The position numbers are program-made. A stretch of 64,000 bases of DNA from the NCBI RefSeq assembly GCF_057098645.1, contig NZ_CM169472.1. One strand, 5' to 3'. Of this stretch, positions 45,590-48,500 are shown piece by piece (the first letter of the stretch is position 1; each line of letters begins with the position of its first letter).

Positions 45590-48500
45590 TGAATGACACC
45601 AGCTTCGAAAACTGCATTAAGTGCACCGTCTGCACCACCGCCTGCCCAGTGAGCTGGGTGAATCCCGGTTATCCAGGACCAAAACAAGCCGGGCCGGATG
45701 GCGAGCGTCTGCGTTTAAAAGATGGCGCACTGTATGACGAGGCGCTGAAATATTGTATCAACTGCAAACGTTGTGAAGTCGCCTGCCCGTCCGATGTGAA
45801 GATTGGCGATATCATCCAGCGCGCGCGGGCGAAATATGACACCACGCGCCCGTCGCTGCGTAATTTTGTGTTGAGTCATACCGACCTGATGGGTAGCGTT
45901 TCCACGCCGTTCGCACCAATCGTCAACACCGCTACCTCGCTGAAACCGGTGCGGCAGCTGCTTGATGCGGCGTTAAAAATCGATCATCGCCGTACGCTAC
46001 CGAAATACTCCTTCGGCACGTTCCGTCGCTGGTATCGCAGCGTGGCGGCTCAGCAAGCGCAGTATAAAGACCAGGTCGCTTTCTTTCACGGCTGCTTCGT
46101 TAACTACAACCATCCGCAGTTAGGCAAAGATTTAATTAAAGTGCTCAACGCAATGGGTACTGGTGTACAACTGCTCAGCAAAGAAAAATGCTGCGGCGTA
46201 CCGCTGATCGCCAACGGCTTTACCGATAAAGCACGCAAACAGGCAATTACGAATGTAGAGTCGATCCGCGAAGCTGTGGGCGTAAAAGGCATTCCGGTGA
46301 TTGCCACCTCCTCAACCTGTACATTTGCCCTGCGCGACGAATACCCGGAAGTGCTGAATGTCGACAACAAAGGCTTGCGCGATCATATCGAACTGGCGAC
46401 CCGCTGGCTGTGGCGCAAGCTGGATGAAGGCAAAACGTTACCGCTGAAACCGCTGCCGCTGAAAGTGGTTTATCACACTCCGTGCCATATGGAAAAAATG
46501 GGCTGGACGCTCTACACCCTGGAGCTGTTGCGTAACATCCCGGGGCTTGAGTTAACGGTGCTGGATTCCCAGTGCTGCGGTATTGCGGGTACTTACGGTT
46601 TCAAAAAAGAGAACTACCCCACCTCACAAGCCATCGGCGCACCACTGTTCCGCCAGATAGAAGAAAGCGGCGCAGATCTGGTGGTCACCGACTGCGAAAC
46701 CTGTAAATGGCAGATTGAGATGTCCACAAGCCTTCGCTGCGAACATCCGATTACGCTGCTGGCCCAGGCGCTGGCTTAAACTCCTTTCTGATGCCCGGTA
46801 AGCATGTGGTTACCGGGCATTTTTGCGTACACGATTCCGTGCCCAGTGTATGCGTTGCAACGCAGTGAAAATTCCTCTGAAAACGTCTCGCAAAGGCTGA
46901 AACTGGCAGATGTCAAAGGCCTGGGATAACCGTAATGTCGCGTCATCATAAATATCAGGTGACGGACAACCATGACCGAATCAACAACCTCCTCCCCGCA
47001 TGATGCGGTGTTTAAAACCTTTATGTTCACACCCAAAACCGCACGGGATTTTCTCGAAATACATTTACCAGAACCACTGCGCAAGCTTTGCAACCTGCAA
47101 ACCTTACGCCTGGAACCCACTAGTTTTATTGAAAAAAGTTTACGCGCTTACTACTCGGATGTTTTGTGGTCCGTGGAAACCAGCGACGGTGACGGCTATA
47201 TCTACTGCGTGATTGAACATCAAAGCTCTGCAGAAAAGAATATGGCTTTTCGGCTAATGCGCTATGCCACTGCCGCCATGCAGCGTCACCTGGACAAAGG
47301 CTATGACAGAGTCCCGCTGGTGGTGCCGTTGCTGTTTTATCATGGCGAAACCTCGCCCTACCCGTACTCACTCAACTGGCTGGATGAGTTTGACGATCCG
47401 CAACTTGCCCGGCAGTTGTACACCGAAGCTTTTCCATTGGTGGATATTACCATCGTACCTGACGATGAGATCATGCAACATCGGCGTATAGCTCTGCTTG
47501 AACTGATTCAAAAGCATATTCGCGACCGCGATTTAATCGGTATGGTCGACAGGATCACCACGCTTTTGGTTAGAGGCTTCACTAATGACAGCCAGCTACA
47601 AACACTGTTTAATTATCTGCTGCAATGCGGCGATACCTCCCGTTTCACCCGTTTTATTCAGGAGATTGCCGAACGTTCACCACTACAAAAGGAGAGATTA
47701 ATGACTATTGCTGAACGGCTGAGGCAGGAAGGGCATCAAATTGGTTGGCAGGAAGGTAAATTAGAAGGTTTGCAGCAAGGTAAATTGGAGGGTCTGCAGA
47801 AAGGTAAATTAGAAGGTTTGCAGGAAGGCATGCATGAGCAAGCCATTAAAATTGCCTTGCGCATGCTGGAGCAGGGCTTTGAACGTGAGATTGTGCTGGC
47901 GGCAACCCAACTCACTGATGCTGATATTCCGAACTGTCATTAAAAGGAGAGATTGATGACTATTGCTGAACGGCTACGGCAGGAAGGACATCAAATTGGC
48001 TGGCAAGAAGGTAAATTAGTAGGTTTGCAGCAAGGTAAATTAGAAGGTTTGCAGGAAGGCATGCATGAACAAGCCATTAAAATTGCTTTGCGCATGCTGG
48101 AGCAGGGCTTTGATCGTGACCTGGTGCTCGCGGCCACCCAGCTAAGCGAAGCCGATCTGGCAGCGAATAACCACTAATTAACACAGGCCCACAGCCGATC
48201 CCCATGGGCCTTTGATATCAATAACTACCTTTTATGCGTGGCCCATTTTTGCCTGATTTAAACATCGCCAGTCGTTGATCCAGGGCATCGCTGTAGAGCA
48301 TCGTGTCAACGCCAACAGCGACAAAGTTCGCTCCCCACGCCAGGCATTGCTGCGCCATATCAGGAGCCACAGCCAGAAAGCCAGCCGCTTTACCCGCAGC
48401 ACGGATCCGCCGAATACTGGTTTCAATAATTCGCTGCACTTCCGGGTGCCCAGCGTTATCCGGGTAGCCCAACGACGCAGAAAGATCCGCAGGTCCAATA

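Follow-up and report, generated by a model that had tools for sequence, protein, structure and literature searches.

A variable four-residue repeat in the rpnE and ypaA genes of Escherichia coli, probably a pairing tract of an Rpn toxin-antitoxin system

Background

RpnL proteins are toxic nucleases that RpnS proteins bind and block, and a plasmid-borne Rpn gives protection against phages (PMC10400941). Neutralization of RpnL by RpnS has been described for RpnA, RpnB and RpnP2, and its dependence on repeat number for RpnC only: RpnC_S with one extra repeat blocks RpnC_L only if RpnC_L has the matching extra repeat (PMC10400941). The 4-aa repeats are inserted in the first helix, 8-20 residues past the RpnS start, and in RpnA_S the first helix is the dimer interface (PMC10400941). 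The number of these repeats varies between strains, and fusions of rpnE and ypaA occur (PMC10400941).

RpnB has been defined as YfcI and RpnE as YfaD (Kingston 2017, PMC5350276), while ypaA has been placed downstream of rpnE and renamed rpnE_Ss (Zhong et al. 2023, PMC10400941). In K-12, translation from the internal start of rpnE is documented by Ribo-RET (bioRxiv 10.1101/520783) and SPA tagging (PMC10400941), the same two methods (bioRxiv 10.1101/520783 and PMC10400941) reveal translation of ypaA, and the RpnE_L, RpnE_S and YpaA proteins have all been detected (PMC10400941). K-12 RpnE showed no activity when assayed for toxicity, recombination and SOS induction (PMC5350276); thus, the toxin-antitoxin role of RpnE is unproven.

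The phenomenon, the locus and the interpretation given here are already known from Zhong et al. 2023 (PNAS, PMC10400941), which includes the nested antitoxin, the ypaA duplicate, the variable 4-residue repeat and the loss of ypaA by fusion, and which explicitly left open the mechanism of repeat expansion. A search of the literature available to the analysis found no later work. To what was known, the present analysis adds the corrected gene name, approximate frequencies of the alleles, the 24-bp super-period of the repeat, a single-unit duplication and a mapped crossover between the two genes.

Organization of the rpnE-ypaA locus

The window, that is, the whole 64-kb stretch of DNA analysed, contains the gene order glpC - rpnE - ypaA - yfaU (rhmA), the conserved position of the locus. 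The rpnE (yfaD) coding sequence (46972-47943, plus strand) encodes the full-length RpnE_L of 323 aa, in which an N-terminal PD-(D/E)XK nuclease domain is followed by a C-terminal RpnS domain. The product matches PF04754 (Transposase_31, YhgA-like) over residues 8-209 (profile positions 1-202 of 203, E = 7.2e-88) and exceeds the cutoff of the NCBIfam yfaD/rpnE equivalog model NF007418 (720 bits, cutoff 583); with the RpnA model NF007361 it reaches 416 bits, below the cutoff of 583. RpnE is thereby a YhgA-like recombination-promoting nuclease by family. The RefSeq name for the identical sequence is rpnE. The sequence-only reading had named this upstream gene rpnB, a name that belongs to yfcI. 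The NF007418 match, the position between glpC and yfaU, the RefSeq name and the published definitions of RpnB and RpnE all identify the gene as rpnE.

The 3' end of rpnE contains a nested frame for RpnE_S (47689-47943, plus strand, 80 aa), which opens with a Shine-Dalgarno (SD) sequence AAGGAG (47689-47694) and an in-frame ATG at 47701. Directly downstream lies ypaA (rpnE_Ss; 47944-48177, plus strand), a free-standing RpnE_S duplicate of 73 aa with its own AAGGAG (47944-47949) and ATG at 47956; its product aligns to profile positions 244-308 of NF007418. The arrangement of AAGGAG, 6 nt and ATG is thus found at 47689-47703 and again at 47944-47958, and both copies continue as ATG-ACT-ATT-GCT-GAA-CGG. 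Pairwise alignment delimits a tandem segmental duplication on the plus strand, with a left arm at 47687-47925 (rpnE 3' end) and a right arm at 47942-48156 (ypaA); the arms are direct repeats, about 90% identical, with one 24-nt gap between them. Since the arms are so similar and share the same start context, ypaA is a tandem copy of the nested RpnE_S frame together with the ribosome-binding site of that frame. The SD and start context is identical to that of K-12, which suggests that RpnE_S and ypaA are also translated from the window allele. A sigma-70 promoter scan of 46780-48260 found no promoter; this result says nothing about the internal transcription starts seen by dRNA-seq (PMC10400941).

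A GC-rich hairpin (48185-48211) lies between the convergent ypaA and rhmA (yfaU) genes and is likely their shared terminator; it is scored on the minus strand only, the plus-strand T-run being weak. In most of the genomes fetched for comparison, ypaA is labeled by PGAP as a pseudogene fragment.

Architecture of the repeat tract

The rpnE gene contains three 24-nt units at 47755-47826, which start at 47755, 47779 and 47803 and read GGTAAATTAGAAGGTTTGCAGCAA, GGTAAATTGGAGGGTCTGCAGAAA and GGTAAATTAGAAGGTTTGCAGGAA, the third coding for GKLEGLQE. All three are in frame with the 323-aa ORF at 46972-47943. Two further units are located in ypaA at 48010-48057, starting at 48010 and 48034 and translated as GKLVGLQQ and GKLEGLQE, respectively, in the frame of the ORF at 47956-48177. 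The three copies in rpnE and two in ypaA that had been read from the sequence are therefore exact in number and position, as confirmed by a second reading and in-register translation. The GKLEGLQx motif assigned to them holds for the rpnE units and for the second ypaA unit; in the first ypaA unit it is imperfect owing to an E->V substitution.

Tandem Repeats Finder reports a period of 24 for both arrays, with 3.6 copies and a score of 130 in rpnE and 2.2 copies and a score of 90 in ypaA. By our own arithmetic, an identity of 21/24 at a fixed offset has a probability of about 2e-10 per position, so the repeat is far beyond chance. Tandem arrays occur at only seven places in the whole window, including these two. 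The remaining five comprise three intergenic arrays of REP type, one array of period 21 (score 51, 25951-25993) and the Pro/Asp linker of the yfaL autotransporter.

In-register translation reveals that the basic period of the tract is 12 nt, or four amino acids (G-x3), with Gly at each fourth residue. Written in this register, the tract reads GHQI GWQE [GKLE GLQx]n GMHE. Its units alternate between GK[LIV]E and G[LW]Qx, which gives rise to the 24-bp super-period. The 24-bp unit proposed earlier thus stands as a super-period, whereas the underlying unit is 12 nt long and the tract extends past the core that had been named. The G-x3 tract in rpnE covers 47731-47838 (plus strand) around a variable core of six units, or three 24-bp super-units, at 47755-47826; the one in ypaA covers 47986-48069 (plus strand) around a core of four units, or two super-units, at 48010-48057.

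A 59-aa antisense ORF overlying the repeat (47736-47915) was judged a by-product of the repeat, without evidence for coding.

Predicted structure of RpnE_S

In an AF2 model of the 80-aa RpnE_S (mean pLDDT 74, 62-65 across the repeat), residues 3-57 and 62-69 form helices, the first of which covers the whole tract; the tract, which starts at residue 11, is thus predicted to lie within a long first alpha-helix. The model contains two helices, in contrast to the three of RpnA_S. The top PDB match of the model in Foldseek is RpnA-S (7th0; prob 0.99, E 0.11, TM 0.71 on target), and the same entry is the sole phmmer match of the RpnE_S/ypaA domain, at a marginal E value of 0.19. The HTH_Rpn_C family (PF27070) is precomputed on RpnE and on proteins 97-99% identical to ypaA, and is absent from the results of the local Pfam scan for the window proteins. 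Profile matches to Yae1_N (E = 2.4e-4), FliH (E = 1.6e-9 to 1e-5) and RepB_primase_C are below cutoffs, the first two by a wide margin, and were rejected as artefacts of periodicity or composition.

Strains, and the two genes within a strain, differ in repeat number

A 1,206-nt rpnE-ypaA query was compared with 5,426 complete E. coli genomes. The locus is present in 5,420 of them, with matched spans of 869-1,254 nt, and the window is matched at 99% identity or more by only 28. The window haplotype is rare (21-28 of 5,426 genomes); the named identical records are strain 95-3192 and two O145 strains. An rpnE-specific BLAST census was limited to clean matches, as pieces of rpnE and ypaA merged and megablast halted at the 72-nt gap in 0-unit alleles.

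To count units, 29 chromosomal loci were fetched from complete genomes and their tracts were parsed for extra 4-aa units. In these genomes rpnE contains 0, 1, 2, 3, 4, 5, 6 or 8 extra units (the 1-unit alleles being L017 and L049) and ypaA contains 0, 1, 2, 4 or 6. The window has six in rpnE and four in ypaA, and K-12 has none and one, respectively. For a systematic sample of 60 genomes, the query was anchored in the unique spacer between ypaA and yfaU, and the spans of the rhmA-side copy came out cleanly: 411, 387, 363, 351 and 339 nt, corresponding to 6, 4, 2, 1 and 0 units in 2, 6, 8, 19 and 23 genomes. Across the fetched loci and this sample, every length difference is a multiple of 12 nt and in frame. 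At the protein level, RpnE_S/YpaA variants in a collection of 5.8 billion proteins have 3-12 G-x3 units in total, with up to nine extra units. The length variation between strains that had been predicted from one sequence is thus present in complete E. coli genomes (0-8 extra units in rpnE, 0-6 in ypaA), and an invariant copy number, the outcome named as decisive against it, is clearly contradicted by the counts.

Variation between the two paralogous copies, also predicted, is equally apparent: the rpnE and ypaA counts are unequal in 22 of 24 scored two-gene haplotypes, the window included. The two equal pairs are L044 (2/2) and L041, from E2348/69 (4/4, with GMHE changed to SMHE). Among the first 15 two-gene haplotypes, including the window, there were no equal pairs against about 0.9 expected by chance, which is not significant; the idea that equal counts are avoided through selection for mismatch was dropped when L044 and L041 appeared. 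Since the early absence lies within chance expectation and matched pairs exist, no claim of avoidance is warranted. Pairs on short-read and metagenome contigs were left uncounted, as the duplication is the exact end point of many of these contigs, which may be chimeric; such contigs served solely to document 5-unit arrays on ypaA. Decayed alleles were also observed: L005 is frameshifted, and L020 is interrupted by IS2.

Changes in repeat number

The clearest single change is found in L050 (GCA_045758665.1, a draft genome). Over 492 nt (47689-48180) its only difference from the window is that GGTAAATTAGTAGGTTTGCAGCAA, a 24-nt unit of ypaA, has been exactly duplicated in tandem. This is the first ypaA unit, with the diagnostic E->V codon, and L050 has an exact extra copy of it, making three units in all. 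L050 is thus a single-step gain of a 24-bp unit, from two to three. Database proteins with doubled adjacent unit pairs (GHQI-GWQE x2, GKIE-GWQE x2) provide similar cases at the protein level. Steps of 12 nt occur besides those of 24 nt, because odd counts of 1, 3 and 5 units are seen.

In about 25 of the 60 systematically sampled genomes (about 42%), the two genes are replaced by a single rpnE::ypaA fusion gene, with the nuclease domain of rpnE followed by a tail of ypaA type; L008, L009, L015 and L018 are examples, products of recombination between the duplication arms. In L008 the crossover falls within an identical stretch of 20 bases, ATGACTATTGCTGAACGGCT, and both the array and the tail of the gene match the ypaA type of the window. 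L008 is therefore a window-type haplotype collapsed to one gene by unequal homologous exchange between the paralogous arms. Together with L050, this case bears out the earlier expectation that copy number changes by slippage or unequal exchange.

Some arrays are not confined to one gene. A 5-unit array (20 residues) is found in rpnE of L007, related loci and many complete genomes, and in ypaA of L021, L022 and L031; the GKLV array of the window occurs on an rpnE-type tail in P0024. The presence of the same arrays on both tail types suggests that rpnE and ypaA have exchanged arrays, with parallel origin as a possible alternative.

Proposed function and alternative explanations

The repeat is best explained as a hypervariable 4-aa (12-nt) tract of an Rpn toxin-antitoxin system, present twice in this locus, whose repeat number sets the pairing of toxin and antitoxin; the probability of this reading is estimated at about 0.85. 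By analogy with other Rpn proteins, we infer that RpnE_S and YpaA have an antitoxin role and a specificity that depends on repeat number. The C-terminal RpnS domain of rpnE would be made twice, within RpnE_L and as RpnE_S from the start at 47701, and a second copy of the tract is carried by ypaA (rpnE_Ss), the tandem duplicate of that domain. On the analogy of RpnA and RpnC, each unit would lengthen the helix behind RpnS-RpnS and RpnS-RpnL binding, and repeat number would fix which antitoxin neutralises which nuclease toxin. On this reading, the number of units is altered, with the frame kept, by slippage at replication or unequal exchange inside an array; homologous exchange between rpnE and ypaA, or deletion between them, alters it too.

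The same arrays could in principle be a neutral minisatellite in a decaying locus, with rpnE and ypaA as relics and a functionless repeat drifting in length. This would fit the inactivity of K-12 RpnE in all assays (PMC5350276), the pseudogene label given to ypaA by PGAP in most genomes, the frameshifted L005 and IS2-disrupted L020 alleles and the loss of one copy by fusion in about 25 of the 60 sampled genomes. However, every intact allele examined keeps the reading frame, Gly at each fourth position and the domain that follows, and the locus is retained in 5,420 of 5,426 genomes. In addition, RpnE_L, RpnE_S and YpaA are detected in K-12, and Rpn proteins from distant phyla show repeat variation of the same type, which in RpnC alters function (PMC10400941). 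Neutral drift is thus an unlikely explanation; it keeps some weight because K-12 RpnE is inactive, some alleles are decayed and the specificity of RpnE is drawn from analogy.

The segment had also been described as coiled-coil-like, and a tract that is helical in the AF2 model, repetitive and variable in copy number might suggest either a canonical coiled coil or a phase-variation switch in which copy number turns the gene on or off. The period is, however, four residues with Gly at each fourth position, not a 3.5-residue heptad with hydrophobic a and d positions; Gly occupies position 1, and there is one hydrophobic residue per 4-aa unit. Because the unit is 12 nt long, length changes never shift the frame and cannot produce on/off switching, and zero out-of-frame repeat alleles were seen among those examined. 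Both ideas are therefore very improbable. Still smaller credence is due to an assembly or sequencing artefact behind the copy-number differences: short-read and metagenome contigs do often break at the rpnE/ypaA duplication, but closed, complete genomes of many lineages, sequenced in many independent projects, show the variation, alleles are consistent within lineages such as O157:H7, K-12 and ST131, and arrays in the fetched genomes measure at most 96 nt, shorter than one read.

Within the toxin-antitoxin interpretation, the role of the second gene deserves comment. Unequal rpnE and ypaA counts in most strains fit poorly with ypaA as a simple back-up antitoxin. A speculative and rather doubtful suggestion is that ypaA serves as a linked cassette, whose alternative array would be swapped with that of rpnE through gene conversion or unequal crossover. 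If this were true, strains could re-key the RpnE_L/RpnE_S interface in one step; alternatively, a deliberately mismatched YpaA could act as a modulator or decoy. Arrays common to both tail types, unequal counts in 22 of 24 haplotypes and frequent fusions are compatible with this suggestion. Independent drift of two duplicates is a simple alternative to it.

The tract is the most variable part of a widespread system of nuclease toxin and intragenic antitoxin that is implicated in phage defence. The rpnE-ypaA locus offers a natural allele series (0-8 units, 0-6 units and fusions) for relating helix length to pairing specificity, and the same series is suited to the study of dodecamer repeat expansion. 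For annotation, two widespread labels are mistaken, namely "pseudogene fragment" for ypaA and "transposase" for rpnE.

Comparison with known systems

The closest described systems are the RpnS antitoxins RpnA_S, RpnC_S and RpnE_S/RpnE_Ss (PMC10400941; 7TH0), which belong to the same gene family, the K-12 case being the same locus. The window shares with them a small nested ORF that has an SD and an ATG to itself, a ypaA duplicate downstream of rpnE, a 12-nt unit, intraspecies variation in copy number and loss of ypaA by fusion; its repeat also starts within the range of 8-20 residues past the RpnS start, namely at residue 11 (PMC10400941). There is no difference in kind: the rare window allele, of O145 type in the named records, has 6 + 4 extra units against 0 + 1 in K-12, and its units alternate.

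Likenesses to other repeats are more distant. The TAEL repeats in HsdS of EcoR124I and EcoR124II (via PMC10400941) likewise form a 4-residue in-frame repeat within a helical spacer, and two versus three copies change specificity. However, HsdS is an unrelated type I restriction specificity subunit, and its read-out is the length of a DNA-target spacer, not protein-protein pairing. The GxxxG/AxxxG segments of FliH/YscL and the deca-GX3 of Yae1/Lto1 also place Gly at each fourth residue of a helix, with variable repeat number, but have neither domain architecture nor context in common with rpnE/ypaA; the likeness is one of periodicity and composition, not homology. Contingency loci (phase-variable simple sequence repeats) similarly carry a mutable tandem repeat in a gene tied to host-parasite conflict. 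They differ in that the rpnE/ypaA unit is a multiple of three, so that protein length, and with it presumably specificity, is modulated and expression is not switched.

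Fusion and inactivated alleles

In a systematic sample of 60 complete E. coli genomes, 25 (approximately 42%) carry a single rpnE::ypaA fusion in place of the two genes, and the carriers include O157:H7, BL21/B, ATCC 25922 and Nissle 1917. Four of the retrieved loci (L008, L009, L015 and L018) have this structure; in L008, the crossover lies within a 20-nucleotide identical stretch directly 3' of the RpnS start codon. An IS2 insertion splits rpnE in strain UTME-10 (locus L020), and strain MB51 (locus L005) carries an rpnE frameshift 5' of the RpnS start. Thus, the rpnE locus is occasionally inactivated.

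Contig ends fall exactly at the start of ypaA very often among short-read and metagenome contigs (loci L023-L040). Because the 255-bp rpnE/ypaA duplication breaks assemblies, both the repeat counts and the gene pairs found at this locus in draft assemblies are unreliable.

Database annotation

Across the retrieved loci L001-L049, RefSeq/PGAP gives rpnE (window 46972-47943, plus strand) the product name 'ISNCY family transposase'. According to the literature, Rpn proteins are nucleases and lack transposon ends. The ypaA gene (window 47944-48177) has pseudogene status in most genomes, with the description 'hypothetical protein; incomplete; missing N-terminus'; its translation has been demonstrated (PMC10400941). 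The label 'Rpn/YhgA-type helix-turn-helix domain-containing protein' appears in a minority of newer records.

Other repeats and by-products of periodicity

A second in-frame coding tandem repeat (positions 29408-29481, period 18/36), encoding PDPDPT-type units (…PPDPDPTPDPDPTPDPDPTPDPEPTP…), lies in the linker of a 1,250-residue autotransporter-like protein (minus-strand ORF 28498-32250), which we take to be YfaL. Strains may likewise differ in how many units of this repeat they carry. The window also contains three intergenic tandem arrays with periods of 88 to 114 nucleotides (1-327, 12119-12330 and 35240-35496), whose consensus (…GCCGGATGCGGCGTGAACGCCTTATCCGGCCTAC…) resembles REP/BIME palindromic elements.

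The predicted 59-residue antisense ORF (47736-47915, minus strand), which crosses the rpnE repeat and is itself repetitive (…CKPSNLP…), is a by-product of the periodic sequence. The tracts with glycine at every fourth residue (47731-47838 in rpnE and 47986-48069 in ypaA) gave sub-threshold profile matches to Yae1_N, which has a deca-GX3 motif, and to FliH models, the N-termini of which contain GxxxG repeats. This likeness to Yae1_N and FliH probably reflects convergent periodicity rather than homology.
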